From a bacterium (GTDB lineage: Bacteria > Patescibacteriota > Patescibacteriia > UBA1558 > UBA10009), in NCBI GenBank assembly GCA_018672055.1, contig JABHGM010000001.1, positions 353,404 through 417,403 of the forward strand: a stretch of 64,000 nucleotides of DNA. Reading direction: 5' to 3'. The translations under genes were made by a program, and so were the position numbers. The notes below the pieces were generated by a model, which was not told where the DNA came from, made no database searches, and worked only from the letters and a program-made list of their open reading frames with translations. Shown one piece after another: positions 3,896-46,952 of this stretch (position 1 is its first letter; each line of letters starts with the position of its first letter).

Positions 3896-6800
3896 ATGAA
3901 AAAGATTAAACTATATGGATTAGTAGGTGCTTTTATAATTAGTCAAGTTTTAGTTCCATCTATGCAATTACAAGCTTTAGATGATAAAACTACTACAAAA
4001 ACTAATGAAATTGTTGAAGAAACTAAGGTAGAGACTAAAACAGATACAGTTACTAAAGAAATAGTATCTTCAGTTGATTCAACAGTTGATACCAAAGAGG
4101 TTATTGTTGAAGAAACTAAAATAATAGTTGAAGAAGTAGTTACCAATGAGGTTATTGTTGAAGAAACTGAAACTGAAATAATAGTTCAAGAGACTGAAAC
4201 TGAAATAATAGTTGAAGAAGTTGTTACTAATAATGAATCAGATGATGATAATGAAGTTATTGTAGAAGAAGTTGAAGTTGAAATAATAGTTCCAGAGGTA
4301 GTTAATAATGAAGAATCAGATGATGATAATTATGAAGTCGAAGAGAGTTTTGAATCAGATGAAAAGGATTATACAGAATTAGAAAGAGTTTATTTCACAT
4401 TGTTAGAAAAATATAATGCATTAATTGAATTTAAAGATAGTCTAAACAATAAGATAGAAGGTTTAGAAAATAAATTAACCCTAGATAGTGAAAGAGTGGA
4501 TGACGAAAAAACACCTCAGATTATTAATGAGGATTTAACTAATCAGTTAAGAGGTAGAATACTTATAAAATCAGAAGATAGAGGTCAAGCATATTATGTT
4601 AATCCAGGTGATGGTAAGAAATATTTCATGGGTGATGGTAACTCAGCATATTCTATTCTACGTAATTTCAGTTTAGGGATAAATAATAGTGACATTAGTA
4701 GAATACCAATTGGTATTGATGATAGAATAAATTATATTGATACAGATAATGATAATTTGCCTGATATTTTAGAAGAAGCTTTAGGTTCAGATAAATATAA
4801 TCAAGATACTGATGGTGATGGTTACCTTGACGGACAAGAAGTAAGGAATGGATACAATTTATTTAATGATAGTTCAATTAAATTACCTGTAGATAATACC
4901 TTAATTGATAGATTAAGAGGAAGATTTTTAATTCAGACTGAGCAGAGTGGACAGTCTTGGTATATTAATCCTGATGATGGTCATAGATATTATGTACCTG
5001 ATGGAGATTCAGCTTTCGATTTACTAAGACTACAATCATTGGGTGTAGAAAATGCAGACCTTGATCAAATAGAAGACGGGGAATTAATTGAAGAAGAAAA
5101 TACTGAATTTATTACTAGTGTTGATTATGATTATCCAATTGATGAGTTAATTGCTCAGTTGCCTAGTACAAGAAATTCTTCTATAGGTAATAATCAGTCA
5201 GTATCACAAGTTGGTGATGAAGAAACTGAAGACGAAATTAATATTAGTGCTATTTGGGATGTTTCTCCAGATCAAATTAATCAAGAAATAGGTGAATCAA
5301 TTGTTCCAATGCAACTTATTATTTATTCTAATATAAGTAGAGTTACAAATAATTGGACTTTCTATTATCAAGGCGAAATAGGTGATGCACCAATTGCAGG
5401 TTCTCTAACTGGAGCAGATGGGCAAGTATTGACTCCTACAGCACTAGCTTTTGAACAAGTAGGGGAAGATCTGTACAGCTTTACCTTTTTTAATATGCCA
5501 ACAGCATTAATGATAGTCCCAAATGTAGCTAATGTCTTAAATTTAAATATAATTACCAGTACTCTACATACTTTAAATGGTCAGTTTTATATGACTCCTG
5601 AAGATATTGAATTTAACCCTGAAAATGAGCTTTTTTGGTCAGAAGACCCAATTTATGGCTCAGAAGTAAATATCACTGAACCATCTAATCAAGAACCTGG
5701 TGAGCTTTTTGTTACTGTGGAAGATAATCCTGCTATTGCTAATATAATTGCTGGTACTTCTGATGTACCTATGCTTAACCTTAAGTTTCAAGCAGTAAAT
5801 GAGTCATTTAATATAAATAATTTAACTGTTAGCATGATACATTCTACTCGATCAGTTGATTCAGTTACTATTTCTTATTTAAATGAAACTGGTGAAACTA
5901 TTACTGCTAATCAAGTAGAAATTTCAGGTGCTGCTAACTTCAATATCACATCAAATCCATTTTATGTTCCAGCTAATACATACAGAATAATGAATGTATA
6001 TTTTAGTGTTCCAGCAATTAATCAAACATATGCAGCATATACTGGTGATATAATTCAAGCTGAGTATAGTACTTATGATAATTTTGAGGCTATAGGGGTT
6101 GAATATGATACTCAGTTAACACAGCTAAGCAATCATCCTCTAAAATTATATAGTAATATCATGACTGTTCATGGAACAGTACCTACATTTATAGTTGATA
6201 GTACCACTAATACAAGTTTAGTTAATGGTCCTGCTGAGTTATATCGTTGGGAAGTAAGCGCTCCTGAAGGTGGTACTGATTTAAGCTTAAAGAAATTATC
6301 ATTTAAGTTAAGCATGAATGATTCAGTTCAAAATACATCTACTTTGAGTCTTTCAAACTTCAGAGTTTATGAAGGTACAAGCTATGCATCTGCAACTCTT
6401 TTAACACAAGGTGATAGTGGAACTGACAGCTATCAAGTATATAATGGTTGGGGTGCTACAACTACAATAGCTGGTAATGAATTTGGTGGTAAGTTAAGTG
6501 CACCAACAGGCGTGCTTTATCAAAACAGCCAAGGACTTACACCGTCTACTACTCATGATGTAATTATTGTCTTTAATGATGACAGATTAATTAGTGCTGG
6601 TTCTAGTAGGTATTACATCTTAAAGGCTACTGCAGGTAATGTTAACACGGGCGTACTTAGTAATGACTATATAGGTATGTATATTTATGATGGTGATACA
6701 GCTACAACTCATAGAATGACACTAGAACCAACTTGTGATGCTGATGGTACCAGCGGTACAGATAGTAAATATTGTTTAAGTAGTGATGGTAATAATGATG

Positions 6801-9991: not shown

Positions 9992-10066
9992 GGCGGCGTA
10001 GCTCAGTGGTAGAGCAGCAGACTCATAAGCTGTTGGTCGGGGGTTCAAATCCCTCCGCCGCTACCA
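9992..10066 (+). tRNA. tRNA with CAT anticodon (elongator Met or lysidine-dependent Ile2)
   Basis: Cloverleaf drawn by hand: acceptor GGCGGCG/CGCCGCT, anticodon loop CTCATAA, T-loop TTCAAAT, CCA encoded. 31:39 is an A-G mismatch. Confidence 0.8.
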
Positions 10067-10071
10067 ATTTA

Positions 10072-10156
10072 GCCAGAGTGGTGAAACTGGTATACACGCA
10101 CGACTCAAAATCGTGTGCCGCAAGGCATGTGGGTTCGACTCCCACCTCTGGCACCA
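10072..10156 (+). tRNA. tRNA-Leu (CAA), class II with long variable arm
   Basis: Acceptor GCCAGAG/CTCTGGC, anticodon stem CACGA/TCGTG with loop CTCAAAA, variable arm GCCGCAAGGC, T-arm GTGGG-TTCGACT-CCCAC, CCA encoded. Confidence 0.85.
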
Positions 10157-10170
10157 CTCATGTGATACAC

Positions 10171-10246
10171 CCGCGCATAGCTCAGTTGGTAGAGCAGTTG
10201 CCTCTTAAGCAAACGGTCGGGGGTTCAAATCCCTCTGCGCGGACCA
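10171..10246 (+). tRNA. tRNA-Lys (CTT)
   Basis: Acceptor CCGCGCA/TGCGCGG, anticodon stem GTTGC/GCAAC with loop CTCTTAA, T-loop TTCAAAT, CCA encoded. Confidence 0.85.
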
Positions 10247-10292
10247 TTGACAAAATTACTAATATACGATAGCTTATAAACATCATATTTGA

Positions 10293-10368
10293 CGCGGGGT
10301 AGAGCAGTTGGCAGCTCGGCAGGCCCATAACCTGCAGGTCGCCGGTTCGAGTCCGGCCCCCGCAACCA
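10293..10368 (+). tRNA. Initiator tRNA-fMet (CAT)
   Basis: Acceptor CGCGGGG/CCCCGCA gives a C1:A72 mismatch. A11:U24 is present. 3' end CCCCGCAACCA is identical to E. coli tRNA-fMet. Anticodon loop is CCCATAA. Confidence 0.85.
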
Positions 10369-13674: not shown

Positions 13675-14643
13675 ATGCGTTATTTAATAGTACTTACAGT
13701 AATGGTAGTTATACTCTTAAATGTAACTATAGCTCAAAGACCTAACGTAATAATTATAAATGACTTTAATTGTCGTAATAATGCAAAATCAGCAATTGAA
13801 TATATGGATTGCTATGAGCAGGCAAGTAGAGCTACTACTACCTATTTTTCATTAGATAATGATAATTATAGTGATTTTGACACATTCGTTTATAACTCAG
13901 CGATACATGAATTGAATAATTTATTGTGGCTTATAATAACCTATAGGATAGATAATGGTCAGAATGAACGAATATTGTCAAATTATTTAAAAAAGGAATT
14001 AGATAATTATTCAGATGATAGTGTTAATCGTGGTGAAATCTTAATAACAAACTCAGATGAGTTTGTTGCAAATAGCGATAAACATAGAAAACTTACCAAT
14101 ATTATCTATGATAAACTGGCTCAGCTGGTCAATGAGATAATTGAATTAAAACCAGCAAATATGTACGATCGTATATTTGTAAACGGTATTACTACTAGTT
14201 ATTCTGCTTATAAGTACGAAGGCATTCCTACTATGTCTGACTTGGATAATGTAAAAAGTAGATTACTTAAATCGGGGGCAATTCCTATAGAGAATGTTAA
14301 AAAGATGATTTATACAGCTAATTCAAAAAGTCTTTTATATAATGCAGAGGATGAATTTCTTAGTTATTATAAAGACTTTGATTGGTATGAAGAACGAATA
14401 AAAAAAGCTTCTTTAGAAGTCCTTGAATTAGATCCTAGTTTTGCAATCCCTTGTTATAAAGGATATATTGATTATGACTGGGGCAGAGAAATGATGAATG
14501 CTGCAATAGAAGAGAGACCTTTTAATGAAAAATATTTTTTTAGGAAGTATCTTATACTTGGAGCAATACTAATTAATGTGGCATTAATCTTTTATTTAAT
14601 GTATTTGGCAACACATAAGCCTAAGCAATCGATACAATCTTAA
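13675..14643 (+). CDS. Hypothetical protein with N-terminal signal/anchor and C-terminal TM helix
   Basis: 322 aa. Hydrophobic N-terminus (LIVLTVMVVILLNVTIA) and C-terminal TM (LILGAILINVALIFYLMYLA). No recognisable catalytic motifs. Confidence 0.5.
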   Translation: MRYLIVLTVMVVILLNVTIAQRPNVIIINDFNCRNNAKSAIEYMDCYEQASRATTTYFSLDNDNYSDFDTFVYNSAIHELNNLLWLIITYRIDNGQNERILSNYLKKELDNYSDDSVNRGEILITNSDEFVANSDKHRKLTNIIYDKLAQLVNEIIELKPANMYDRIFVNGITTSYSAYKYEGIPTMSDLDNVKSRLLKSGAIPIENVKKMIYTANSKSLLYNAEDEFLSYYKDFDWYEERIKKASLEVLELDPSFAIPCYKGYIDYDWGREMMNAAIEERPFNEKYFFRKYLILGAILINVALIFYLMYLATHKPKQSIQS

Positions 14644-18228: not shown

Positions 18229-19110
18229 TCAATAGTAATATTCTTTCAAGCTATCTAATATGTCATCTGAGCTAGTTATTAATTTAGCTCCTTGTTGAAT
18301 TAACATATTAGTTCCTTTAGAATTTTCATATACTATATTGCCAGGTAAGCATAATATATCCTTACCTTGTTCTAAAGCATACTTAGTAGTAATTAAAGCT
18401 CCAGACTTTAAAGTAGCTTCTATTATTAAAGTTACATTACTTAATCCAGAAATTAATCTATTTCTTCTAACAAAGTTTTTAGGCAAAGGTTTTGCTTTGG
18501 GATAAAACTCAGAAAGTATTAATCCGTTATTATTTATTATATCATCTACTAGCTTTAAATTGCTACTGGGATAAATATTGGAAAGCCCAGAGCCTAGTAT
18601 GGCAGTTGTTGGGCCTTTGTATCTTAAACTTATTTTATGAGCTAAAGTATCAACACCGTAAGCTAGTCCAGAAATAATATTTATATTATTCTTAGCTACG
18701 TCTTTTAATAGTGAAGGCATTACTTGTTTTGCATAATCTGATATATCTCTTGAACCAACTACAGCTAAATTTATATTATTTAATATATTTATATTTCCTT
18801 TGTAATAGAGAATGAATGGGGGATCATATATGTCTTTTAAAAGTTGAGGGTAATCATTATCATAGATAGACACTATATTAATATTATCATTAATTAATTC
18901 ATCTATTAATTTATCAGGGTCGAGCTTGTCTTTTTCTGCAAATATCTTTTTAACTGTTATATCAGCTAAACCTATTTTTATATATTCTTGATAACTTGCT
19001 TCAAAACAAGTTTTTGGATTAATAAAAAAATCCAAGACCTTCTTAAGAGTTACGGGACCTAGACCCTGGATTTGACTTAACGCCAATAAGTATTTCAAAT
19101 CACTTTTCAT
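18229..19110 (-). CDS. dprA: DNA processing protein DprA/Smf
   Basis: 293 aa. Rossmann-like core AVVGSRDIS..ISGLAYGVDTLAH..TTAILGSGL. Confidence 0.9.
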   Translation of the reverse strand: MKSDLKYLLALSQIQGLGPVTLKKVLDFFINPKTCFEASYQEYIKIGLADITVKKIFAEKDKLDPDKLIDELINDNINIVSIYDNDYPQLLKDIYDPPFILYYKGNINILNNINLAVVGSRDISDYAKQVMPSLLKDVAKNNINIISGLAYGVDTLAHKISLRYKGPTTAILGSGLSNIYPSSNLKLVDDIINNNGLILSEFYPKAKPLPKNFVRRNRLISGLSNVTLIIEATLKSGALITTKYALEQGKDILCLPGNIVYENSKGTNMLIQQGAKLITSSDDILDSLKEYYY

Positions 19111-19299
19111 AAATTGTAAGTGGATCTTAGAATATATCTATATTAGTGTCAAGGATTCTAAACTTGATCTTTTTGAGATATCTTGTTAATATATTTTAAC
19201 TACTGTTTAATTTATCTAATTTTAGCTAAAATTATTAGTTAAATATTGACAAAATTGTATTTTCTTGATAAGGTAATACATTATTAATTTTAAATATAG

Positions 19300-19450
19300 T
19301 AATTTGTTTTTAAATTTCTGCTTACCAGCGGTGAAAGTTAGTGTCTCCCTCCTAGCGCAAACGAGTAGCCTTAAGCTAAGACATTATTCCTTTTGGAGTA
19401 GTGCCTTACGCTGGTGAGTGGTAATTTGGAGATAAGTTCTCCATGTTCAT
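19300..19450 (+). ncRNA. Candidate small structured RNA of unknown class; strand uncertain
   Basis: GC-rich relative to its surroundings and contains no ORF. A 9-bp long-range helix (TTACCAGCG...CGCTGGTGA) encloses about 70 nt with internal hairpins, followed by a TGGAGA-TAAGT-TCTCCA hairpin. Plus-strand promoters sit upstream (TTGATC-17-TAATAT at 19164-19192) and a terminator downstream. Confidence 0.3.
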
Positions 19451-19460
19451 TTTAAACATA

Positions 19461-19490
19461 AAAAATGTTCCCATACGGGAACATTTTTTT
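19461..19490. terminator. Bidirectional intrinsic terminator (ATGTTCCC-ATAC-GGGAACAT flanked by an A-run and a T-run)
   Basis: Read directly. Confidence 0.7.
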
Positions 19491-19508
19491 GTTAGGTTGG
19501 AGACCTAT

Positions 19509-19727
19509 TTAGTTTTTAAAAAATTTAGACCAAGGCTTAATAGCAGCTAATAGGAAGACGATAAAGTACCAATACCATTCAAAAGATAGTAGATCAGGTA
19601 AAAGTTTAGCAAGCATTAAAGTAAAAGCAAATATAGCAAGTTTTACTAAGCCCATGTCAGACCAAGTCAATTTTTTAATATTTGAATTTGTCCAGTTTAA
19701 TATACTCATAATTTCACCCCCTTTCAA
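19509..19727 (-). CDS. Small hypothetical membrane protein
   Basis: 72 aa with two hydrophobic helices. Ends 7 nt after pth, likely co-transcribed. Confidence 0.4.
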   Translation of the reverse strand: MKGGEIMSILNWTNSNIKKLTWSDMGLVKLAIFAFTLMLAKLLPDLLSFEWYWYFIVFLLAAIKPWSKFFKN

Positions 19728-19734
19728 AGAAGAT

Positions 19735-20259
19735 TTATATTAAATTATTTATTTCTTGAATAACTTTATTTATCACTTCTTTAACTTTTTTCTTTTCAAA
19801 TAAACCAAATTTATTTAATACAAATTTACTTGTATCTGACATTTTACGTGGGTTATCAGATGCTACGCCTACTCTTATTCTAGTAAAGTCCTGAGTTTTT
19901 AAATGTTTTATAATAGATTTAACACCATTATGGCCAGCCGGTCCACGATTATTTTGTATTTTATATTCTCCGAGTAATAGGTCTTTGTCATCATGTATTA
20001 CTATTACATCTTTAGGATCAATATTATGTTTACGTATTGCGTAAGCTACGGTAAAACCAGATTCATTCATAAAGGTTTGTGGTTTAATGAGCTCAACATC
20101 AGTATTATTAACTTTGGTTTTAATAAAAAGACCTTTAGCCTTTTTATCGTTATTCCAGTTCTCATTACCAGCTAAAGCATCTAAAACCATGAAGCCAATA
20201 TTATGTCTGGTCTTTTCATATTGTTTACCTGGATTACCAAGTCCTATTATTAATTTCAT
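19735..20259 (-). CDS. pth: Peptidyl-tRNA hydrolase
   Basis: 174 aa. LIIGLGNPGKQYEKTRHNIGF N-terminus. Confidence 0.93.
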   Translation of the reverse strand: MKLIIGLGNPGKQYEKTRHNIGFMVLDALAGNENWNNDKKAKGLFIKTKVNNTDVELIKPQTFMNESGFTVAYAIRKHNIDPKDVIVIHDDKDLLLGEYKIQNNRGPAGHNGVKSIIKHLKTQDFTRIRVGVASDNPRKMSDTSKFVLNKFGLFEKKKVKEVINKVIQEINNLI

Positions 20260-20260
20260 A

Positions 20261-21571
20261 TTATTTTATTTTTCTAATTTTAATTATAATAGGTGTTCCT
20301 AAAAAACCAAACTGAGCTCTTAATTGTTTTTCAATAAATTTAAAGTATGATTCTTTTAGATCAGATTGAATATCTTTAACTAGTTCAAAATATGGTGGAT
20401 CCATACCAATCTGTTTTAAATTGAAAAGTTTTGGTTTAGCTGTACCTTTGCCTCTGGAAGGTGGATGTTTTTTAACAACCTTTTTTAAGAATTTATTTAA
20501 AGCATTATCTGTTATTTGTCTATGTCTTTCTTGATACACTTCTAATGATAAATCTAATAATTTTCTAACTCTTTGTTTTTCTAAAGCTGAAATAAAGATA
20601 ATTGGAGCGAATGATAAGAAGGGGAAATATGAGTAGTAATAATTTACATACTTATTAATAGTTAAATCATCTTTATCTGGTATTAAATCCCATTTATTTG
20701 CTGCTATTATTAATGAAGTATTACTTTTTAATATTTCACTTGCTAGCATTTTATCTTGCCTACCTAATTTTTTAGAAGCCTCAGTCATTAAAACTGTAAT
20801 GTCTGCACGTTCTAATGATTTAATACTTTGAGCTACACTAAATTTTTCTAATTTATTTCTTATCTTACTTTTTTTTCTAACTCCTGCTGTATCTATTAAA
20901 TTAAAGTTAAAGCCTTTATGCTTAATCATAATATCTTGGCTATCACGTGTAGTGTATGGTTCAGCTGAGGTAATTACTCTGTCTTCACCTAAAATAGAAT
21001 TAATTAAAGTTGATTTACCTGTATTAGGTTTACCTAAGATAGCTACACCAATACTCTTTTCTGGTTTTTGCTTTTTAGTGTTAGCAACATTCTTAGCAAT
21101 TTCATCTAGTAGGTCACCAGTCCCTGTACCATTAAGTGCTGAGATTGGATATGGATCACCTAAGTTTAATTTATAATACTCAGCTACATTTTCTTTCATC
21201 TTTTTATTATCTGCTTTATTTACTACTAAGATAACTTTCTTTTTACTTTTTTTAAGCATAGCTGCTACTTCTTTGTCTTGAGGCATTAAACCATCTTTAG
21301 CATCAACTAAAAAAAGAATTAAATTTGCTTCCTTTTTAGCAATATCTGCTTGTCTTAAAATATCTTTTTCAATATCTTTTGGATGGACAATATCAATACC
21401 ACCAGTGTCAACTAGATCAAATCTTTTAGAATTCCAAATTATTTCTTGATAATTTCTATCCCTAGTTGTTCCAGCAATATCAGAAGTAATGGCAACACGT
21501 TTTTCTGTTAAAGTATTAAATAGTGTTGATTTACCTGTATTTGCTCTACCAATTAAAACGACTTTATGCAT
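20261..21571 (-). CDS. der: Ribosome-biogenesis GTPase Der (EngA)
   Basis: 436 aa. Two tandem GTPase domains (GRANTGKSTLFN and GKPNTGKSTLIN) plus a KH-like C-terminus. Confidence 0.93.
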   Translation of the reverse strand: MHKVVLIGRANTGKSTLFNTLTEKRVAITSDIAGTTRDRNYQEIIWNSKRFDLVDTGGIDIVHPKDIEKDILRQADIAKKEANLILFLVDAKDGLMPQDKEVAAMLKKSKKKVILVVNKADNKKMKENVAEYYKLNLGDPYPISALNGTGTGDLLDEIAKNVANTKKQKPEKSIGVAILGKPNTGKSTLINSILGEDRVITSAEPYTTRDSQDIMIKHKGFNFNLIDTAGVRKKSKIRNKLEKFSVAQSIKSLERADITVLMTEASKKLGRQDKMLASEILKSNTSLIIAANKWDLIPDKDDLTINKYVNYYYSYFPFLSFAPIIFISALEKQRVRKLLDLSLEVYQERHRQITDNALNKFLKKVVKKHPPSRGKGTAKPKLFNLKQIGMDPPYFELVKDIQSDLKESYFKFIEKQLRAQFGFLGTPIIIKIRKIK

Positions 21572-21669: not shown

Positions 21670-21813
21670 GATTCTTATATATAATGATTTACCAAAATCT
21701 TGATGAAAGAATAATTATTCTCATTTTTAGATTATTCATTATATTTTTACCTATAAATGGGCTTTTTAGAGGCTTAAATAAGCTTCTATACAATTCCCTA
21801 TGACGTCTATTCA

Positions 21814-23376
21814 TTAATCCTCCAGTATTTCTTCAATTACTTCGTCTGTTGAAGTAGAAGTTTCTATTTTAGGTTCGGGTATTTTAAATTCATTAGCATG
21901 ATCTTGTCCTAGTATAATAATAATATCAGGTTGATTATTTAAAGAACTTGGTGTGGTCGTAGCATTTAAATTATATTCTTGTAAAATGTATTCAGGAACG
22001 TCTTTAGCAATGTAGGCATCTAAATCGTTTTCTAACTTCTCTAAAGTTAATTCTTTTTCTCCGTCTGTTAGATCATAGATAATTGTTTTTTGATAATCAT
22101 CAGATGGTGCATTATCATATGATATTACATTATAATTAATTTTTTCTAAATAAAGATATGTGTATAGAGCTAGACCTGTTATTTCTGTACCATTTTGTAT
22201 GGCTATCTTAGCGTTTTCATCTTTAATCTTATTTAATTCAAATATATTTTTTATTAATGATGATAGTTTATTATAATCTCCATTCCTAGGTTGTAAAACA
22301 TAAGCGCCTTCTTCGGTAATCATAGGTTCTAACAAGCTACCTGGTGAATCATCTAAAACAAATCGAGATATATTTTCATTATCAATACTTTTGGCAATTT
22401 CTGCTAATTTTAAAGCTTGCCAAACTGAGATATTGGTATCAACATGATCATCTAATAATTCAAAGATACTGGATATTTTTTTAGGGCTAGTTAAAGTTGA
22501 AAATGATAGTACCTTATCTTTAACAGCTTGGATTAATAATTGTTGTCTTCTACTTCTAGCAAAGTCTCCGCTCTCTCCATTAGTTCCATGCCTAGATCTA
22601 ACAAACATTAGAGCAGTGTTACCATCCATTAGCTGCATGCCTTGTTCAAAGGAAACAGTTTGAGTTAAAAAGTCATCAGTTGGAAATGATTCATCAACAA
22701 AACTTCTTACAACATCAATATTAATACCACCAAGATCATCAATAAATGTTTCAAAGCCAGTAAAATCTATAATACTATGATAATGTATTTTAATGCCTAA
22801 GTTTTCTTCAATGATAGCAGTTGCATCAACACCTGCTGTTTTATAATTCTCAGCGTATTCATAGGCATAGATAGAATTAATTTTTTGATAGCTATTATCT
22901 TGTAACTTTATTATTAAATCACGTGGTAATGAAATTAAAGCAATCTCTGAAGTTGATGGTTTTATACTACCAAGTATAATAGTGTCAGTTAAAAAAGGTC
23001 CTTCATGACCAACACCACCAACACCCATTAATAGAAAGTTAATTCTGTCACTACCTTCACCAGATAATTTTTTATCAGCACTACTTATTAAATTAGCCAA
23101 GTGCCTGAACGGATTAAATTTATTTAAAGGATTAGCACTAGAATCAGGTGTAGAAAAAGTTATTTCAGATAAATACATACCACCTGTTATAATCAATATT
23201 AGAGTAAGAACTAATATAATTTTTAAAATATTAAACTTAGACTCTTTGGGTTGTTCTAATACTTGGGTTTCAACAGATTTTTTAGCCAATGGTTTAGGTA
23301 CTAAAAAATCAACCCTATCACTAGGCCTATTTCTAATTACTTTTGATCTTTTATGTATACCGTCAAGTGAACCCAT
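21814..23376 (-). CDS. LytR-CpsA-Psr (LCP) family cell-envelope phosphotransferase with a C-terminal LytR_C-like extension
   Basis: 520 aa. N-terminal TM, then LCP core (NFLLMGVGGVG..DTIILGSIKP..ISLPRDL). Confidence 0.8.
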   Translation of the reverse strand: MGSLDGIHKRSKVIRNRPSDRVDFLVPKPLAKKSVETQVLEQPKESKFNILKIILVLTLILIITGGMYLSEITFSTPDSSANPLNKFNPFRHLANLISSADKKLSGEGSDRINFLLMGVGGVGHEGPFLTDTIILGSIKPSTSEIALISLPRDLIIKLQDNSYQKINSIYAYEYAENYKTAGVDATAIIEENLGIKIHYHSIIDFTGFETFIDDLGGINIDVVRSFVDESFPTDDFLTQTVSFEQGMQLMDGNTALMFVRSRHGTNGESGDFARSRRQQLLIQAVKDKVLSFSTLTSPKKISSIFELLDDHVDTNISVWQALKLAEIAKSIDNENISRFVLDDSPGSLLEPMITEEGAYVLQPRNGDYNKLSSLIKNIFELNKIKDENAKIAIQNGTEITGLALYTYLYLEKINYNVISYDNAPSDDYQKTIIYDLTDGEKELTLEKLENDLDAYIAKDVPEYILQEYNLNATTTPSSLNNQPDIIIILGQDHANEFKIPEPKIETSTSTDEVIEEILED

Positions 23377-23451: not shown

Positions 23452-23528
23452 GGACGCGTAGCTCAGCTGGTTAGAGCGCTTGATTCACATTCAAGAGGTC
23501 AGTGGTTCAAATCCTCTCGTGTCCACCA
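23452..23528 (+). tRNA. tRNA-Val (CAC)
   Basis: Acceptor GGACGCG/CGTGTCC, anticodon stem CTTGA/TCAAG with loop TTCACAT, T-loop TTCAAAT, CCA encoded. Confidence 0.85.
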
Positions 23529-27341: not shown

Positions 27342-28934
27342 ATGCTTTTAAGTCAAAAAACAAAAATTACAAAAACAGCTACAATAGCCTTAGTTTTAGT
27401 CTTTGCGGTAGCTGTTTTTATGTTACTTACAACCATTGCTTTCGCTCAAGATGATTTTGGTTTAGAACCGGTTGTAGAATCAGGTTTAGGTACTACGGAC
27501 ATTAGATTAGTTATTATTAATATTATAAGGGTAGCTTTAGGTTTCTTAGGGATTTTAGCTGTTATCATAATATTATATGGTGGCTATGTTTGGATGACAT
27601 CTGCTGGTAATGATGAAAATGTTAACAAAGCTAAAAGAATATTGGTTAATGGCGTAATTGGTTTAGTAATAATATTATCATCTTACGCTATTGTAACTTT
27701 TGTTTTTAATAAGATGGAAGATGTTATATTTGGAGATGGTTCAGAACAAGGTAGTGGTTATCAGAATTCTGATATTTCTGCAGGAGCTTTGGGTGGCGGG
27801 GTTATAGAAAGCGTTTATCCTTTACCTGGTGCTAATAATGTACCACGTAATACTTTAATAATGGTTTCATTTAAAGAAGAAATACTTTTAGATAGTATTA
27901 TAACTGGTACTCATGCTAATTGTCCTGAGAATATATCATGTGGTATTTTAGCCGGTGATTCCGAAGATCCAAATGTTAAGATACTAAATTTAAATGACAA
28001 CTCCATAATGTCGGCTAGTGATGTCATGGTTTATACTACTGATTTAAAAAATTATATCTTTGATCCATATGGTAGTACAGGTTCACATTTAGGTAACCCT
28101 AATGGCTATACTGATTATCAAGTTAATCTCTCAACTAATATATATTTTAATAATGATTTAAATACTCCAGTCTTTTCTTTAGATGGCTATACTTGGAATT
28201 TTGAAATAAGTAATATTATAGATTTAACACCACCGACAATTATTTCACGTATACCTCAAGGTGAGGTTAACAGGAATGTAGTTATTCAAATAGTATTTAG
28301 TGAAGCTATTAATGCTGCTGCTGCTGTTAATTTAAATAGCGTTGATGTTTTATATGAAAATGTAGCAGGTGAAGAAATATTAATAGAAGGAAGTAGAGTA
28401 ATAAGTAATGGTTTTACAACTCTAACTATTGTTTCTGATATAGCGTGTGAAGGACCTTCAGAGTTTAATTCATGTGGTGATCCAGTCTATTGTTTTCCAG
28501 GTGATGAAGATATTTCTGTAACAGTTAAAGCTGTGACTGATCCTTTATTTCCTTTAGCTGGTATTTCTGATACAGCTGGTAATTCTTTAGCTTTAGACAA
28601 TTCTTGGCTTTTTAATACAAATAATGAATTAGATTTAGATCCTCCTGAATTAGAATCTATTGATCCAGTAGATAATGCTGAACTGGTACCACGTAATAAG
28701 GTGATAGAGGCAGTATTTAATGAAGATCTATTAGCTAGCAGTGTAAATAGTACTAATGTTTTAATATATAATGGTTCATTAAATGATACTCCATATACTG
28801 TTAATTTAAATAATCATGATTTGATTAGAATTAACGCTACTATGGTAGGTAATGCTACATATAGTACACGTTTAACTTCAGGCATTAAAGATATTTATCA
28901 AAATTGTTTTATTCCTCCTTTAACTAATCCATAA
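27342..28934 (+). CDS. Surface protein: VirB2/TrbC-like (T4SS-pilin-like) N-terminal two-helix domain fused to three SbsA/Big_5-like Ig domains
   Basis: 530 aa. Signal peptide (cleavage near AFA|QDD), then GLEPV..GLG and two hydrophobic helices (IIRVALGFLGILAVIIILYGGYVWMTSAG / ILVNGVIGLVIILSSYAIVTFVF). Three Ig-like modules begin PLPGANNVPRNTLIMVSF, IPQGEVNRNVVIQIVFSE, IDPVDNAELVPRNKVIEAVFNE. Stop overlaps the next start (ATAATG). Confidence 0.75.
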   Translation: MLLSQKTKITKTATIALVLVFAVAVFMLLTTIAFAQDDFGLEPVVESGLGTTDIRLVIINIIRVALGFLGILAVIIILYGGYVWMTSAGNDENVNKAKRILVNGVIGLVIILSSYAIVTFVFNKMEDVIFGDGSEQGSGYQNSDISAGALGGGVIESVYPLPGANNVPRNTLIMVSFKEEILLDSIITGTHANCPENISCGILAGDSEDPNVKILNLNDNSIMSASDVMVYTTDLKNYIFDPYGSTGSHLGNPNGYTDYQVNLSTNIYFNNDLNTPVFSLDGYTWNFEISNIIDLTPPTIISRIPQGEVNRNVVIQIVFSEAINAAAAVNLNSVDVLYENVAGEEILIEGSRVISNGFTTLTIVSDIACEGPSEFNSCGDPVYCFPGDEDISVTVKAVTDPLFPLAGISDTAGNSLALDNSWLFNTNNELDLDPPELESIDPVDNAELVPRNKVIEAVFNEDLLASSVNSTNVLIYNGSLNDTPYTVNLNNHDLIRINATMVGNATYSTRLTSGIKDIYQNCFIPPLTNP

Positions 28935-31900
28935 TGAGATTTATTAAAAACAATTTATTCATTTTAATATTACTTGTTGTAGTTAGTTTTTTTCTAATAC
29001 CTAATCTTTCATTTGCTCAAACTGATTTAGGTTTAGAACCGGTTGCAGAAACAGGTTTAGGTTCTAGTAGTTTACCAGAGCTAATTGTTAGAATAATTCA
29101 AATAGCTTTAGGCTTTCTTGGTATCTTAGCCTTAATAGTTATACTTTATGGAGGCTATACATGGTTATCATCTGGTGGTAATCAAGATAAGGTGGCTGAT
29201 GCTAAAAAAATACTTGTTAACGGTGTAATTGGTTTAGTAATAATATTATCTGCATTTAGTATTGTTACTTTTTTAATTACTAGAATATTTGATGCTACAG
29301 GTGGTGAAGCTTTGTATTGCGAAATAGGTCAAGTTGAAGAATGTTCTATGTCAGGTGATTGTGAAAGAGAGAAAACTTGTATTGATAATGGTGAAGGTAA
29401 TGGTGTCTGGGGAGATTGCGAAATAATTTACTCAGGTGAATGTAGTCCACTTAGTGATAGTGAATTTTTTAGACTAACAGCAACTGCTCCAGCTAATGGG
29501 GATGAACTAAATATTGCTAATGTTGTGGTTCAATTAACTTTTAATAATAATGTAGGTGATTTTAATGCCATAGATTTATCAGAAGGAGAAGGTGTAACTA
29601 TAGTTCAACGTTCAACTAATAATTTAGTACCTTTAGTAGGCGAAGTTTCAAATAATCCAAAAAAATTAAATATATATCCTGATAAAGATCAAGCTGGTTA
29701 TGCTTGTACTGGACATCCAGATCTTGCTTGTTTTCCATATGATTCAATTGATGATTTAAATAATTGGTATACAGTTACTGTTTTAACTGAGGGCGTTGTT
29801 TTAACTAATTCTTCTGGAACTGAAGTTTCTTGTTTAGATATACCTTGCGTATTTGAATTTAAAACAGGGTTTTCTGTAGATACAGAAAACCCTGTTGTAG
29901 ATTTAATTTCAGCTGTAAGTAATGGTCAGTTTGATTGGAATAATTCAGATAATATAGATATAAATATTTCTGAAAGCTTTTTATTTAATAGTCAGGCTTC
30001 TGATGACGCTGGTTTAGCTAGTTCTAATTTTTTTGAAAATCAAATTACTTTATCATCTACTCCTGATCTTGGACAAGGCTTGTTCTTATCACTTATTCCG
30101 TGGTCTCCTGAAGATTTAGGTTACCAAGTATCAGATGTAAAGCAGGTTGGGGCTGAAGTAACTGATTATGCTGGTAATTCAACTCAATCGATTAAACAAG
30201 TAACTCTTTTTTCAGCCACTTGTTATAACGAGATACAAGATGGAGATGAAATAGGTATAGATTGTGGTGGCTCATGTCCAGCGTGTAGTGATGAAAATGT
30301 AGATAATCCAATAATAACTTCTATTGATCCACCTAATGGTGCTTCAGGAAATTGGATAACCATTTATGGTTCAGGTTTTGGTGAGAGTCAAGGTACTATT
30401 AAATACAGGGATCAACTAGGAAATATTAATTATATTGGTGTACCTTCTTTAGGTATGTTGGTATGCGAAAGTCCATGGAATGATACTTGGATAATTATGG
30501 AAATACCAGATATTGATCTTGGTTTGGTTGATTTACAGGTGGTTAGGTTTAATTCTAGTATTAGTAGTAATTGGTATGAAGATTTTGATGTAAATACTAT
30601 TCAAAGACCTGGTATTTGTTTAATGACTTCAGATGATGGATATTATAATGATGAATTAAATATTATTGGTCATAGTTTTGGTGATAACACTGATGTACGT
30701 GATATATTTTTTGGACAATCAGTGGAAAGGGTATCAGCTTCAAATCAAAGCTTCAGTATTGAGGGAAGCATAGAACATGCTTATGGTAATGTACCTTATT
30801 TAGAAAGTGGCCAGACAGTAGTTAGGGTTGAAATAGATGGTGAAGAAAGTAATGGACTATATTTTACAGTAATAGATTCTAACCAAGAAAGTTCAATAAG
30901 TTTTTCACCAGATTCAGGTAATGTAGGTGAATACATTACTATTTATGGTTCAGGTTTTGGTGATTTCAAAGGTGAAGGAACTGTATATTTTAATAATAAT
31001 ATTGAAGGTAGTTTTGATTTTCCAGATGCTTGTGGCACTAACTATTGGTCTGACGATCAAATCGTGGTTAAAGTACCTGTCGGATCAAGTGATGGAGCAT
31101 TAAGAGTAGAAACAGATAGTGGTTACGTTGTTACTTCATCAACATTTTTTGATTTTAATAATACATTAGATATTTCTCCTGGAATTTGTAGTATTACTCC
31201 TAATTCAGGTTTAATAGATACGCCTGTATATATTGCTGGTGAGTTTTCTGAAGATGTTTTAGTTAATTTTTCTGGGATTGAACTATCTGATGTTGATATT
31301 GATAATAATGAAATAACCATCTTAGTTCCGAATGTTTCTTCAGGCTTAGTAAATTTAGAAGAACCAACTGGCGCTGAAAGTAATAGTGTTAATTTTTCAG
31401 TTGGTCAGACTTCTCAAGGCGGAGAACCTAATGATGATTATTTTGAATGGCAGTTTACAACTTGTGAAGATTGTTTAATTCCTGAAGTTGAGGAAAATGG
31501 TATATGTTCAAATGGTGATTTAGCTTCACCAAGCCCAAGACCATATAGTACTGATGGTTTTATTGATCAAGATGTTACCATAACTTTTAATAGTACTATG
31601 GACCATAGTACATTTATTGCTAATGATTCTGTTATTTTAGAAGTATGTGATGGTTTAGAAGTTAATTGTACTTCTAGTAATTGGTCATTTGTATTAGGTG
31701 ATAATAGAAATTCTGTAGTATTAAATCCAGATAATGATTTTAATGCTGATACTTGGTATAGGATAACTTTAACTGAAGATATTGCTAATTTTGAATATAA
31801 TATGGATGCAGAATATTCTTGGTCATTTAAAACAGCTCAAGAAAATTTACAATGTACTGCTGACTCAGTTATTATTTCTCCTTATGATAGAAGAGAAGGA

Positions 31901-34900
31901 TCAACGCTTGGACCAATTGAATTAAATGAATATGTTAACTATTCAGCATCAGGTGTAAATAGTAATAATTGTGCTTCATGTTCAGATGATTTTGAATGGG
32001 AATGGGAATCGAATGATCCAGGTGCTGTTATATCTGATACTAATTTATCAACTAATCAACTACATGCTGAAGGTTTAATTTCTTCTAATCAAGAAATAAT
32101 AATAGCTCAGATAATAGACGTTGAACCTTATCCAATAGGTAATGCATATTTAAATATTGTAGAAGAAACAGGTAATCAAGATAATGAGCCAGGTGATGAT
32201 CAATTACTGCTTGTTGATTATCAACCGGTTGGTGATCAGGTTTGCTTAAATACCTTAGCTCAAGTTGAATTTAATCATGGATTATCGGATAATGGCTTAT
32301 CTCAGTTTAGTTTTTTTAAGTGCTCAACTAGCGAAGGAGACTGTCCAACTTTAGGGGAGGGAGGTAATTGGATATCTGCAGGTTCAGACATTACTTTTAA
32401 TAACAATAATACTCTAGTTAGTATGTCTCCTAGTAGTGGTTTACTTGATCCAGATTTTGATTATAGGATAATTATGTATAGTGGTGATCCTGATATTCTT
32501 GGTGAGAGTCGCATTAGTACAGATGATGGCTTATTCTTAAATCAAGAAGGCTGTGAATATGGAGGCGGTAATTGGTTTCAGGGTATGCAATGGTGCTATT
32601 GGATATTTAGCACAGTAGATGAAAGGTGTGAAGTTGATAGCATAGGAATTTCTCCAAATAATGTTATTAATAATATTAATGATACACAGGATTGGCAGGC
32701 TACAGCTTATGATCAAGAAGGCTTAGCATTAACTGATGTTGTTGACTCATGGACTGTTAATGATAGTGAAATAGCTAGTATTGTAGATAATGGTGATAAT
32801 ACTGCTACTACTGATAGTCTATCATCTGGCAGTACTTGGCTTTATACTGATATAGATATAGATAATATTCGAGGGGAAGCCTGGTTAGAAGTGGAGCCAA
32901 GTATTGTTAATCCTCAAATAATTAGTACTCAACCTATAGGTCAAGAATATTTTTGTACAAACTCATTGGTAGAAGTTACTTTTGATCAGTATTTAAAGAG
33001 AGAGACTGTAAATCAAAATACATTTGAATTAAATCAATTTTCAGATACAGATTTAGGTGGCTGTATTGCTTTTGATGAAACTATAGCTTTTGGTGAGCCA
33101 ACTAATTTAATAAATAAATTTACGGATGTATATTTTAATAAGTTTATATCTAATTTAACTAGTAAGTTAGTAAATTATGTATTTAACAAGGTGTATGCTA
33201 TTGTTCCTGACTGGATTCCTCAATCTGGATATTGGTGTCCCTTAAATAATTCAGGTGAATGGATTTTAGATAATATTGGTGGTGAAGGTAGGGTTAAATT
33301 TCAGCTAAACGAGGTTTTGCCAGGAAATAGTAGTATTCAAGTTTTAATTCAAGGCGGTCAAGGTGGAGTCTTAAGTATTCAAGACTTACCTTTAGATATA
33401 AATAGTGATACTTATGATTATTATTTTAATACTAGTGATACTTATTGTGAATTGAGCTTTTTACAAGTTTCTACTGATTTAGAAACTTATTCGCCAGAGT
33501 ATACTTTTAATATTAGTGAAGATTCTAGCAATCTAGATGAAAATGATCCATTGAGTGGTAATTTTGATACTATTAATGATTATGATAAAGCTTTCTATGT
33601 AACTGGTTTTAGTCAAAATGGTCAAGCTTTGACTTCAGTGCCTGGTGAGTATGAATGGATATGGCGTTGGAATAGTGAAGACACTTCTATTGCTTTAACT
33701 ACAGATTCTGTTAATTACAGTGAGTATTATGATGCAGATTATGATGGTAACTATAATGTAGTACTAGCCGCTAACAATAATGGTGAAACAGATATTACTG
33801 CTCATGCAGTATTTATAGATAACAGTTCCTTGGCAGGTACTGGGCAGGTTATCGTTGATTTATGCGAAAATCCATGGCCAGCTGTAGATATAACTAATTT
33901 AGATAATACATATTATGAAGATACTAATTTTTCATTTGGTTTAAGTTATTGTCGTGATGCTGGTTTATATGGCTTTAATGATGATCTACCTTCACTTGGT
34001 GATATTTCTGATAATGTAACCCTTTATAATATTAGTGCTGATGATTTATTAAAAGAGTATTTAATGCCAGTAGGAGATGATCTTATTGGTTTAAGAGTAT
34101 ATACTAATGATAATCATTTAAGTCCAGCTGAGTGGTATTCAAATAATATACCTGAGTTACAGCAGGGTAATTTATCCTATCTAATAGTAGATGGCTATCA
34201 AGCAATTCAAGATGGTAGAACTATTTACGTAGCAGCTACTAGTGTAACTAATGATAATATATCAATTTATTCAGATATTTTCCTTCTATCATATAACTCT
34301 GAGGCTTCAGCTGAAACAGTTAATATATATAATCAATTAATTGATAGATGGATTTTTAATACAAATATTTTAGAAGAGAATAAGGGTAAGTTAATTAGAG
34401 ATTTAAAAAGGTTAAATGATTTAACCTATATTAAAGAAGTATTAAATAATTATAATGCTATAAATAATACATATCCTATATTATCAGGTGGTACTTTCTT
34501 AACAGGTATGAGTACTTCTAAATGGCCTTCCTGGAATAATACTTTTTCTTCAGAACTTAATGCTTCATTACCTATTGATCCTATTAATCAATTTAATGCA
34601 TGCGCAGATTGCACTTCATCTTCAGATGCTAGTTGTGATAACTATGATATAAATACTTGTTGGAACCCTGATTTAAATAACGGGCAAGGTAATTTTTCTT
34701 GTGACGCTGGTTCTTATTTCTATAGATATCAATATTCATATAATGCAGGACCTGATTATTTATTAGCTGCTAAAATGGAATTTCCATATGTAGGTAATAT
34801 AGCTTCTACTTGGAATCCTTCTTTCGATACTAATCATTTATATTTAAGTACAGAATTTGTAGAAGGTTGTGGTTTTGAATTTTTAGGACAAGTTTGTGGT

Positions 34901-45013: not shown

Positions 45014-45541
45014 TTAAATATTAATTATTCCAACCTCATTAGCTATTGCTATATAAGTAAGTATTGATAATGAAGTAGTAGTTAATCCAAGACTAATGAA
45101 GAAGCAACTTTTAAATGCTTTTTCTTTTTTTTGAGGATCAGAATAGTCAACTGCCCAATCAAGATAATCAAGTATATATATGAATAGTATTATAGCGCTT
45201 ATTATAATAAGTATACTACCTGCTATTTTCCATGCTATATGACTTTGAATAAAACTTAATAGAATAAGTATTATTGAGGACAAAAAGCATTGAGTCATAA
45301 AATAGAAAATGATTGGTGATTTTAGATTAATACTACTAACAAAATGTATTTTTGTACCATCAATTTTTAATATTTTAGCTATTAAGAAAAAAGTAATTGG
45401 TAGTAAAAATAATATTATACTAAGTGTACCAGCGGATTTATTATATTCTATTTCACTATGCGCTTGGATGAGCATGAAATCAGTACATATTAATATAGTT
45501 ATTAATGAGACAATAATCTCTCTCGATATTCTAAGTAACAT
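45014..45541 (-). CDS. Paralog 1 of a triplicated polytopic membrane protein family (unknown function)
   Basis: 175 aa, 4-5 TM helices. Shares FYFMTQCFLSSIILILLSF / DYLDWAVDY blocks with the 46305 paralog. Confidence 0.6.
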   Translation of the reverse strand: MLLRISREIIVSLITILICTDFMLIQAHSEIEYNKSAGTLSIILFLLPITFFLIAKILKIDGTKIHFVSSINLKSPIIFYFMTQCFLSSIILILLSFIQSHIAWKIAGSILIIISAIILFIYILDYLDWAVDYSDPQKKEKAFKSCFFISLGLTTTSLSILTYIAIANEVGIINI

Positions 45542-45656: not shown

Positions 45657-46184
45657 TTACCAAGTTAACCAATTTTGAAGAGCAAAATTTTCTAAATATG
45701 TGGGAAGATTATTATATATCCTAACAGTTGGTATCATGATTACTAAATAGAGACAAAGAGTAGTTAATAGACCTATTATTGTCCATTGTTCTTTAGAATT
45801 TATGTACTTATTATATTCGTAATTTCTATCTATTGTATCTGTTAGTAATCTAGTTGCATAATATAGAAGAAATACAATCACTATGAGACCAGGCATGATT
45901 TGAGCTGACGTTGGATTTGCATTTTTCGCTATAAGAAGACCACTAATAGCAATAATTAGGAGCTGACTAACTATTACATAATCTCTTATTTTATTTACTT
46001 CTTTACCTTTTTTATATGGACCAGGATTTAATGAAAATGCCATTAAAATATATACAAAGATACTAATACCAACAGTCATATTATATCCTATAATCGGGGC
46101 AAGGCATATATAAAAAATAAATGTAAATAATAGTCCAATTACTGAAATACCAAAACTTTTACATATCGTATAAAAATTATTCAT
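45657..46184 (-). CDS. Paralog 2 of the membrane protein family
   Basis: 175 aa, polytopic. C-terminal ..LENFALQNWLTW is similar to ..LDYFCLQKYWYLLN of paralog 3. Confidence 0.55.
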   Translation of the reverse strand: MNNFYTICKSFGISVIGLLFTFIFYICLAPIIGYNMTVGISIFVYILMAFSLNPGPYKKGKEVNKIRDYVIVSQLLIIAISGLLIAKNANPTSAQIMPGLIVIVFLLYYATRLLTDTIDRNYEYNKYINSKEQWTIIGLLTTLCLYLVIMIPTVRIYNNLPTYLENFALQNWLTW

Positions 46185-46304: not shown

Positions 46305-46952
46305 TTAATTAAGTAAGTACCAATATTTTTGTAAACAGAAATAATCTAAGATAGATGATTTATCTGCAGCAACTGTTATTGTTGAGTATGTTATCAGTAT
46401 CAATAATACAGCTGTTAATATGAGACTAACAAAAAACCAGTATTTGTACTTTTGTTCAATATTAAAGAATGGGTGATAAGGCATCGGCGCATGGTGATCA
46501 TAGTAATCAGTTAAAGCATTTACCCACTTAAAATATTTATTTGAAAAATATATCATGATGAGAAAACTAGCTATACTAATAATCATGTTACCTATTTCAT
46601 CAATAAAAGGTTGATAAAATGTACTGACCAAAATTAATATAGTCGCTGAAAGATAAGATTGAGTTACTAAATATAGATTGGTTGGTTTATCATATTTTTT
46701 GGATTCTTCTGAGTAATGGGCTTCTTTAGGATGAGAAAGAGGTTTTTTATATAATTCAAGTATCCATATTCCAGCTGGTGTTATTATTAACATCCATCCA
46801 AGAAAGTGGAATGATTGTTGGAAACTCATTCCAAGCTTTACTCCAAATATAATTAAGCTAATACAATATAGCAAACTTAGTATGGGGTATAAGAAATTAC
46901 GAGATATATTTTTTATTGAATATATTCTTATTTCTTTTTTTGTTGGTACCAT
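46305..46952 (-). CDS. Paralog 3 of the membrane protein family
   Basis: 215 aa, polytopic. Conserved blocks shared with paralogs 1 and 2. Confidence 0.6.
   Translation of the reverse strand: MVPTKKEIRIYSIKNISRNFLYPILSLLYCISLIIFGVKLGMSFQQSFHFLGWMLIITPAGIWILELYKKPLSHPKEAHYSEESKKYDKPTNLYLVTQSYLSATILILVSTFYQPFIDEIGNMIISIASFLIMIYFSNKYFKWVNALTDYYDHHAPMPYHPFFNIEQKYKYWFFVSLILTAVLLILITYSTITVAADKSSILDYFCLQKYWYLLN

Follow-up and report, generated by a model that had tools for sequence, protein, structure and literature searches.

The cuckoo RNAs of the Alphaproteobacteria (RSs0680/CcsR, SmelC397 and related RNAs) consist of two to four adjacent simple hairpins, each with a CCUCCUCCC loop, and this anti-Shine-Dalgarno motif is their only strongly conserved sequence (PMC4615179). 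They have been proposed to act by occluding ribosome-binding sites (RBSs), and at least one member has been reported to be bound by Hfq (PMC4615179). Here, we describe a small RNA gene with a comparable loop in a stretch of 64,000 nucleotides (nt) of the patescibacterial contig JABHGM010000001.1. The gene is located in the 398-nt gap between dprA and the operon that contains der and pth. "The window" refers throughout to the whole 64-kb stretch that was analysed. Judged from its sequence, this is a stand-alone gene that extends from its own promoter to a terminator shared with the opposing operon and that encodes a structured small RNA conserved across Patescibacteria. We consider it close to certain that it represents a real family of structured RNA genes.

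Like the cuckoo RNAs, the window RNA is stand-alone, has a C/U anti-Shine-Dalgarno-like loop and compensatory changes in its stems, and belongs to a family with a preserved gene neighbourhood and, at some loci, adjacent copies. Unlike them, it presents a single motif loop within a three-way junction, a closing helix of 29 bp and an AGUA/GAA loop. Only one hairpin has a CCCUCCU or CUCCUCCU loop, and this hairpin is enclosed by the helices P1 and P1a and placed beside a second arm, P3, that lacks the motif.

Other small RNAs with exposed C-rich sequences are known from Firmicutes. RsaE/RoxS and the streptococcal csRNAs are terminator-ended RNAs of about 100-150 nt in which unpaired C-rich or CCUCC-like stretches pair with RBSs; the csRNAs regulate competence and have CiaR-dependent promoters. 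The window RNA adjoins a competence gene, dprA, a link that is only positional. RsaE/RoxS and the csRNAs differ in being without the closing helix, the junction and the AGUA/GAA loop, and neither was matched by Rfam in the window copy or in 13 homologue loci. A further parallel is provided by the RNase III processing stems of rRNA precursors and multi-unit transcripts, in which a duplex of 25-30 bp formed by the flanks brackets a functional RNA. The helices P0 and P1 bracket the RNA described here in a similar manner, and two loci (L166 and L199, in our numbering of homologous loci) have two bracketed units per promoter, but cleavage of P0/P1 is only putative. Processing at the 5' end may be unneeded, since the inferred start is close to the base of P0 in many loci.

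The RNA corresponds to no family in Rfam 15. At the gathering score, only transfer RNAs (tRNAs) were found in the whole window. At E ≤ 10, the region 19100-19560 matched only terminator look-alikes (such as STnc370 and Phe_leader, over positions 19423-19497), and 13 homologue loci searched at E ≤ 1 yielded only tRNAs and noise. A preliminary description of the locus, made by eye, had seen no signature of the signal recognition particle (SRP) RNA, the transfer-messenger RNA (tmRNA) or the RNase P RNA, in agreement with the lack of such matches at E ≤ 10 in this region. SRP RNA, for which neither RF00169 nor RF01854 gave a match, has a GNRA-capped helix 8 and symmetric and asymmetric internal loops. 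The window RNA has no such helix 8, and its only conserved hairpin loop is 10-13 nt long and contains CCCUCCU. The 6S RNA is similar in being stand-alone, widely conserved and about 150-200 nt long with a long, nearly continuous closing helix. However, it has a central asymmetric bubble and a terminal stem that mimic an open promoter, where the present family has a three- to five-way junction, and there was no match to RF00013 in the window or the 13 homologue loci.

It is thus most improbable that the RNA is a highly divergent SRP, 6S or RNase P RNA or tmRNA that was missed by Rfam, even though Rfam detects none of these RNAs in the window, the closing helix is as long as in SRP and 6S RNA, and the family is conserved across the phylum. 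In addition to the missing family matches and hallmark structures, the core of about 106 nt is far shorter than RNase P RNAs and tmRNAs (no search aimed at the P4 motif or the tRNA-like end was made), and the RNA is missing from the pth-dprA interval of many Patescibacteria and occurs in tandem in others. Neither this RNA nor any other small RNA of Patescibacteria was found to be described in the literature searched, and a preprint on the transcriptome of TM7x states that its genome has "no currently validated small RNAs" (10.1101/2022.03.25.485537). We therefore regard the family as new: a small RNA with an anti-Shine-Dalgarno-like loop, an unusual scaffold and a fixed position, so far seen in Patescibacteria only.

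Fold and limits of the RNA

In our model, the structured unit spans positions 19301 to 19438, approximately, on the plus strand. P0 and P1 together form a closing helix of about 29 bp, which opens into a three-way junction. The first arm consists of P1a, a GAAA/AGUA internal loop and P2, the 12-nt loop of which carries CCCUCCU, and the second is the variable arm P3. The features of the gene are as follows.

19246-19251 and 19269-19274, plus strand: promoter of the RNA, with TTGACA as the -35 element, a 17-nt spacer and TAAGGT as the -10 element
19301-19316, plus strand: 5' strand of P0, AAUUUGUUUUUAAAUU, which pairs with 19423-19438 over 16 bp in the minimum free energy (MFE) fold
19317-19329, plus strand: 5' strand of P1, UCUGCUUACCAGC, 13 bp with 19410-19422
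19330-19332 and 19333-19336, plus strand: 5' strand of P1a (GGU) and junction strand GAAA, from the model and the alignment
19337-19362, plus strand: P2, with the stem GUUAGUG/CGCAAAC and the 12-nt loop UCUCCCUCCUAG at 19344-19355
19347-19353, plus strand: CCCUCCU in the loop of P2
19363-19367 and 19368-19370, plus strand: junction strand GAGUA and 3' strand of P1a (GCC)
19371-19376, plus strand: junction linker UUAAGC (consensus nnAAGY)
19377-19408, plus strand: variable arm P3, UAAGACAUUAUUCC-UUUU-GGAGUAGUGCCUUA
19410-19422, plus strand: 3' strand of P1, GCUGGUGAGUGGU, from the model and the alignment
19423-19438, plus strand: 3' strand of P0, AAUUUGGAGAUAAGUU, which overlaps a TGGAGA hairpin; from the MFE fold, flank pairing and RNAalifold
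19460-19490, both strands: bidirectional intrinsic terminator AAAAAATGTTCCC-ATAC-GGGAACATTTTTT, with a 13-bp stem and an AUAC loop, -15.4 kcal/mol

The segment is richer in G+C than its flanks, as had been noted before: 39-43% for positions 19300-19450 versus 16-23% for the preceding 200 nt. The plus strand of 19300-19500 folds with -70.8 kcal/mol (z -6.9), a value equalled by none of 200 shuffled sequences, and the minus strand with -54.3 kcal/mol (z -4.9). The junction is tight, with no nucleotides between P1 and P1a, about six between P1a and P3 (UUAAGC) and one between P3 and P1, and the linker UUAAGC is unpaired even after P3 gains two basal pairs. All predicted folds leave the loop of P2 unpaired, and this loop is complementary to GGAGG. 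Between P1a and P2, GAAA (19333-19336) opposes GAGUA (19363-19367), an arrangement that fits, at the level of sequence, the AGUA/GAA consensus of the sarcin-ricin (bulged-G) motif.

The preliminary description had proposed structure at 19320-19450, and a structured RNA is indeed there, although its limits had to be corrected to those given above. The closing helix TTACCAGCG/CGCTGGTGA described at that time is also present, but the length of 9 bp assigned to it was wrong, since P1 comprises 13 bp and P0 another 16 bp. Likewise, the hairpin TGGAGA-TAAGT-TCTCCA does exist, at 19427-19443, but it competes with the 3' strand of P0. We rejected it as a functional stem or terminator because it overlaps this conserved strand and because nothing comparable was visible in those flanks of homologues that were read; it is probably incidental. 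A small protein gene was also rejected, since the 37-codon ORF (open reading frame) starting with TTG at 19304-19417 overlaps helices with compensatory substitutions.

Homologues, covariation and strand

The closest relative of the Pth protein encoded in the window is from Parcubacteria GW2011_GWF2_45_11 (63% identity), followed by sequences from Magasanikbacteria (50-59%). Searches with the RNA region using nhmmer and blastn identified a copy of 76% identity at the same position on the Parcubacteria contig (L001; LCKE01000054.1, 6800-6990, minus strand), and weak matches at two other loci (L038 and L056). All three copies are located just 3' of pth on the strand opposite to pth. The copies that were read have a common architecture: a long closing helix, a 3-bp P1a, GAAA, a hairpin with a CCCUCCU loop, NNGUA, a UUAAG linker and a variable hairpin.

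Since MAFFT misaligned the first homologues, the covariance model, R1, was built from a hand alignment of four N-padded sequences. The model matched the window copy at 19317-19422 with 79.4 bits, which defines a core of about 106 nt, and recovered the held-out copy at L045 with 67.8 bits. New members were found at three further pth loci, L015 (54.7 bits), L025 (28.7 bits) and L051 (19.3 bits), all of them antisense to pth.

To this we added a context-free scan of metagenome contigs with a pattern representing the RNA core, GCTA N10-18 AGGAGGG N9-14 TTTSRCCRCT. The scan identified at least 119 stretches, of which at least 80 contained full-length matches to R1. Here and below, counts of loci and sequences that draw on metagenome copies refer to those among the matches listed and are hence lower bounds. 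Patescibacteria genome and metagenome contigs together contributed at least 87 copies, of which 83 were distinct. Viral contigs were used as a negative control; the pattern matched seven stretches, none of which passed R1, indicating that the pattern alone does not produce model matches. A phage origin of the RNA was rejected on the same grounds.

We quantified the support for the helices in an alignment of these sequences (at least 87, 83 distinct) that was fitted to the model and contained 31 modelled pairs. Standard pairs occupied 92.9% of the pair cells as compared to 73.4% after shuffling, and none of 500 shuffles reached the observed value for any of five measures. Compensatory, two-sided changes were observed in 27 of the 31 modelled pairs, and sliding the partners by one to three columns left only 35-48% of the cells paired. 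A set of 58 sequences gave the same picture. For the individual helices, P1 was paired in 96.2% of the cells with compensatory changes in 10 of 13 pairs, P1a in 99.6% with U-G and A-U variants included, and the base of P3 in 92.5% with compensatory changes in all seven modelled pairs; all eight pairs of P2 also showed compensatory changes. The helix positions and the junction strands were, moreover, conserved in sequence.

Because the alignment had been fitted to the model, two independent checks were run. The first, MAFFT combined with RNAalifold on 30 sequences with their flanks, recovered P0, P1, P1a and the base of P3; 30 of the 35 pairs showed compensatory changes. In the second, a mutual-information scan that is blind to structure, the annotated pairs ranked at the top, and two basal pairs were added to P3 (19377/19408 and 19378/19407). 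The outer helix P0 was examined in 53 homologues, where on average 10.96 of 12 flanking positions paired, as compared to 7.25 when flanks were mixed across loci.

The covariation is also strand-specific. The alignment contained 369 G-U or U-G cells versus 27 A-C or C-A cells, which identifies the functional strand as the one antisense to pth, that is, the plus strand of the window. An RNA on the minus strand or a leader of dprA was rejected on the basis of this count and of the orientation of promoter and terminator, which is that of a plus-strand gene. For the preliminary description, the lack of a transcript, of conservation beyond this genome and of any Rfam match other than to a terminator would together have spoken against the candidate gene. 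The extensive conservation found in other genomes removes that objection.

The family is variable outside its core. The smallest and most divergent relatives are found in a patescibacterium (L025, 6557-6635, minus strand) and in Kerfeldbacteria (L051, 6485-6568, minus strand). They consist of the long helix and one hairpin with a ACUCCUCCUAA loop and lack GAAA/AGUA and P3; both are still convergent with pth. At the other extreme, P3 is replaced by three hairpins at L086, L087, L090, L109 and L127 (R1 matches of 148-183 nt), where a conserved hairpin CGAC-GCCAG-GUCG and two more produce a five-way junction on the same core. Tandem copies separated by about 30 nt were found at L166 (2496-2737, minus strand) and L199 (4509-4751, minus strand); each copy has its own P0/P1, and a single TTGACA promoter precedes both. 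At L062, the gap after pth, which other lineages fill with the RNA, contains on the strand antisense to pth (about 6621-6783) a TTGACA followed by CTTAGTTAAGCACACTCAAA twice in a row, with an extra A before the first copy and no CCUCC.

Transcription unit and genomic setting

The promoter TTGACA-17-TAAGGT is found where the preliminary description had placed it, and suggests that transcription starts at about 19281. Its TTGACA and its spacing recur in the homologues. A sigma-70-type match of at least 10 out of 12 positions was present within 90 nt upstream in 62.5% of 72 distinct loci versus 2.8% of random windows from the same contigs, a 22-fold difference. These promoters have the form TTGACA-16/18-TAnnnT, usually with a perfect TTGACA, with a median of 40 nt between the end of the -10 element and P1. 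The other promoter proposed earlier, TTGATC-17-TAATAT at 19164-19192, did not survive. The sequence is present, but it matches the consensus at only 8 of 12 positions, was not listed by the promoter scan and has no counterpart in the homologues.

The strong bidirectional terminator that had also been predicted is preceded by an A run, followed by a T run and common to the RNA gene and the convergent pth operon. A terminator-like hairpin of -7 kcal/mol or better with a T run was found within 130 nt downstream of the RNA at 36 of 57 loci. In the window, no plus-strand ORF follows this terminator, which ends at 19490, and a same-strand ORF follows closely at only about 10 of 55 loci, in line with the earlier statement that no protein gene is positioned to make the RNA a 5' leader. 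The lack of such an ORF at most loci indicates a stand-alone small RNA. The proposal of an orphan unit of promoter, structured RNA and terminator without an ORF is thus supported by the promoter, the covariation, the terminator, the lack of a downstream ORF at most loci and the absence of an Rfam match.

We consider it very improbable that the RNA is a cis-regulatory, riboswitch-like leader, with a CCUCC loop that sequesters a downstream RBS or a terminator that serves as expression platform. The ORFs located 35-165 nt after the RNA on the same strand at about 10 loci (including L001, L084, L091, L103, L113, L114, L086 and L137) are often preceded by GGAGG and encode small membrane proteins or lipoproteins, which speaks for such a leader. 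However, the window and about 45 of the 55 loci have no such ORF, the ORFs that do exist look unrelated by their (unaligned) N-terminal sequences, the space between the RNA and pth is less than 250 nt at about 20 loci, and tandem copies exist. The lack of a consistent same-strand downstream gene led us to reject a riboswitch or cis leader. A type I antitoxin was rejected because of the short distance to pth at those 20 loci and because the small ORFs differ in both strand and N-terminal sequence.

In the window, the RNA gene is surrounded by the following genes.

18229-19110, minus strand: dprA (Pfam DNA_processg_A, E = 4.6e-78)
19509-19727, minus strand: small membrane ORF 3' of pth; the likely start is ATG at 19709, which gives 66 amino acids (aa)
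19735-20259, minus strand: pth, in the der-pth operon
20261-21571, minus strand: der, in an operon with pth and the small membrane ORF

The 66-aa membrane ORF, for which no Pfam match was obtained, is convergent with the RNA gene and shares its terminator. The position relative to pth is widely preserved: at 66 of 86 loci, pth follows downstream in convergent orientation (median distance, 230 nt), although the search pattern contained no information about pth. At 10 of the remaining loci the contig ends too early for pth to be seen, and at the other 10 enough downstream sequence is present but pth is missing from it. The gene dprA is upstream and divergent at 36 loci. The Pth sequences next to the metagenome copies are each closest to the Pth of a Patescibacteria-like locus, while several of the metagenome-assembled genomes carry other automatic labels in their record titles, such as 'Gammaproteobacteria'.

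The RNA is located inside a conserved der-pth-dprA block in a subset of lineages only. It is absent from the interval between pth and dprA, the only one examined, in many Patescibacteria and especially in Magasanikbacteria, where the two genes almost abut. Loci L002-L020, for example, have pth-dprA without the RNA. No hidden copies were found 3' of pth at the loci negative for R1, where pth and dprA either abut or are separated by a gap without CCUCC; the sole CCTCC in these gaps (L048) belongs to a tRNA.

The convergent arrangement raises the question of whether the gene acts on the pth operon itself, by read-through antisense transcription or polymerase interference that tunes der, pth and the small membrane protein. 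The close and convergent position of pth at most loci, retrieved with a pattern blind to pth, and the terminator shared in the window are consistent with such an effect, but we consider it improbable. The genes do not overlap and are separated by strong terminators at most loci, transcriptional interference would need neither a covarying fold of this complexity nor an invariant loop, and 10 loci have no pth although their downstream sequence is long enough to contain it.

Possible action of the loop and meaning of the family

Our tentative proposal, the most likely of the readings considered, is that the CCUCCU loop pairs in trans with GGAGG-type sites in mRNAs. A rigid scaffold would display the anti-Shine-Dalgarno-like loop as a pairing seed, the targets would be purine-rich GGAGG-type sites, chiefly RBSs of this kind, which only a minority of mRNAs possess, and pairing would lower the translation or the stability of the target. 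The duplex P0/P1 would define and protect the unit, and a double-strand-specific RNase, for example RNase III, may be able to excise it from transcripts that are longer or contain two copies. Action in trans rather than in cis is suggested because few loci have a downstream ORF and two loci carry tandem copies.

Two lines of evidence point to the loop. In L025 and L051, which diverge most from the other members, CCUCCU is the one element that is kept. Furthermore, the best predicted partner of the loop in the window is GGGGGUGA, the RBS ahead of the ORF at 19509-19709, with -11.1 kcal/mol as compared to a median of -3.65 kcal/mol for 54 genes. This is the most G-rich RBS noticed in the window. 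Five other genes have a Shine-Dalgarno-type motif, and four of them are among the partners ranked next. AGGAG is found only before the genes at 13675-14643, 45014-45541, 45657-46184 and 46305-46952, none of which has a Pfam match and all of which look membrane-bound or secreted by their sequences; the gene at 39460 has a weaker AGGA. On predicted energies, the ranking fits a small and specific set of targets.

Several observations weigh against this proposal. The ranking may reflect only which genes have G-rich RBSs. No Shine-Dalgarno motif was found for 48 of the 53 genes in the window (ORFs of at least 110 aa), the upstream regions of which are A/U-rich, so that Shine-Dalgarno pairing cannot play a general role in this organism. 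The full complement of the loop, CTAGGAGGGAGA, occurs nowhere else in the 64-kb window with up to two mismatches allowed. The invariance of CCCUCCU, UAGC and AGYGGYSAAA in the metagenome matches was imposed by the search pattern, as was in part the retention of the GAAA and GAGUA strands in most members. Only eight pattern-independent sequences (the window, L001, L015, L025, L038, L045, L051 and L056) are therefore informative about the conservation of these positions; among them, CCUCCU is present in all eight, CCCUCCU in six and GAAA in five to six. Finally, base-pairing small RNAs usually have simpler folds than this one, and the AGUA/GAA loop, the conserved helix positions and the variants with up to five arms point instead to a structural function or to an interaction with a protein.

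The last point is the basis of the principal alternative, a serious one although we consider it doubtful: a protein-binding or housekeeping RNA that acts in a ribonucleoprotein, with the junction, the AGUA/GAA loop and the pyrimidine loop as binding surface and mRNA pairing not its main activity. One possible variant is a decoy of the 3' tail of the 16S rRNA (..AUCACCUCCUUA) for a factor that recognises the tail, and another is a scaffold for a protein related to translation or RNA processing. Such a role would account for the conservation of the RNA across lineages in which Pth is only 40-60% identical, for the sequence conservation within helices and junction strands, and for peripheral arms that are added in modules around an unchanging core, a feature shared with large structured RNAs. 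It would also accommodate the scarcity of Shine-Dalgarno motifs, and the neighbouring genes for Der, an Era-like GTPase with a KH-like domain, and Pth are related to translation. However, no candidate protein emerged and none is uniquely linked to the RNA. Since pth, der and dprA form a conserved block even where the RNA is missing, this block can account for their linkage to the RNA. The flanks of the loop beyond CCUCCU differ from the 16S tail, tandem duplication is more typical of regulatory small RNAs, and L025 and L051 have lost AGUA/GAA yet keep the loop.

It is conceivable, if rather unlikely, that this complex RNA, seen here in Patescibacteria only, works with the translation machinery and not as an ordinary base-pairing small RNA, for instance as a displayed copy of the anti-Shine-Dalgarno tail of the 16S rRNA, titrating either the few mRNAs led by a Shine-Dalgarno motif or a factor that binds the tail.

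Additional features were observed in the window. Immediately upstream of dprA, the promoter scan listed TTGACA-17-TAAGAT at 19124-19152 on the minus strand, 14 nt 5' of the start codon. This is a candidate promoter of dprA, which would then have a very short leader, and it is placed back-to-back with the promoter of the RNA at a distance of about 100 nt. On the other side of the operon, a 41-codon ORF at 21689-21814 (minus strand) has an ATG that overlaps the stop codon of a LytR-CpsA-Psr gene (TAATG); this putative gene has GGAGG a few nt 5' of it, among very few start-adjacent GGAGG sequences in the window. Four tRNA genes (Met-CAT, Leu-CAA, Lys-CTT and Met-CAT) are clustered at 9992-10368 on the plus strand, and a lone tRNA-Val-CAC gene is located at 23452-23528 on the same strand. 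The T arm of the clustered tRNAs at 9992 and 10171 reads AAAUCCCUC and resembles the consensus of the RNA loop, AAUCCCUCC, which is probably a coincidence. A very large ORF of 2597 aa occupies 28934-36727 on the plus strand.

Patescibacteria are host-dependent and for the most part uncultured bacteria with tiny genomes. An RNA that is kept in such bacteria, at a position that is fixed across lineages with Pth proteins of only 40-60% identity, is likely to do something important. The family is a candidate entry for RNA family databases such as Rfam and offers a concrete handle on post-transcriptional control in Patescibacteria. The conserved display of CCUCCU in an organism largely without Shine-Dalgarno sites poses a pointed question. 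If the RNA does work with the translation machinery, it would add a hitherto unrecognised level of global control over translation in organisms the genes of which mostly lack these sites.

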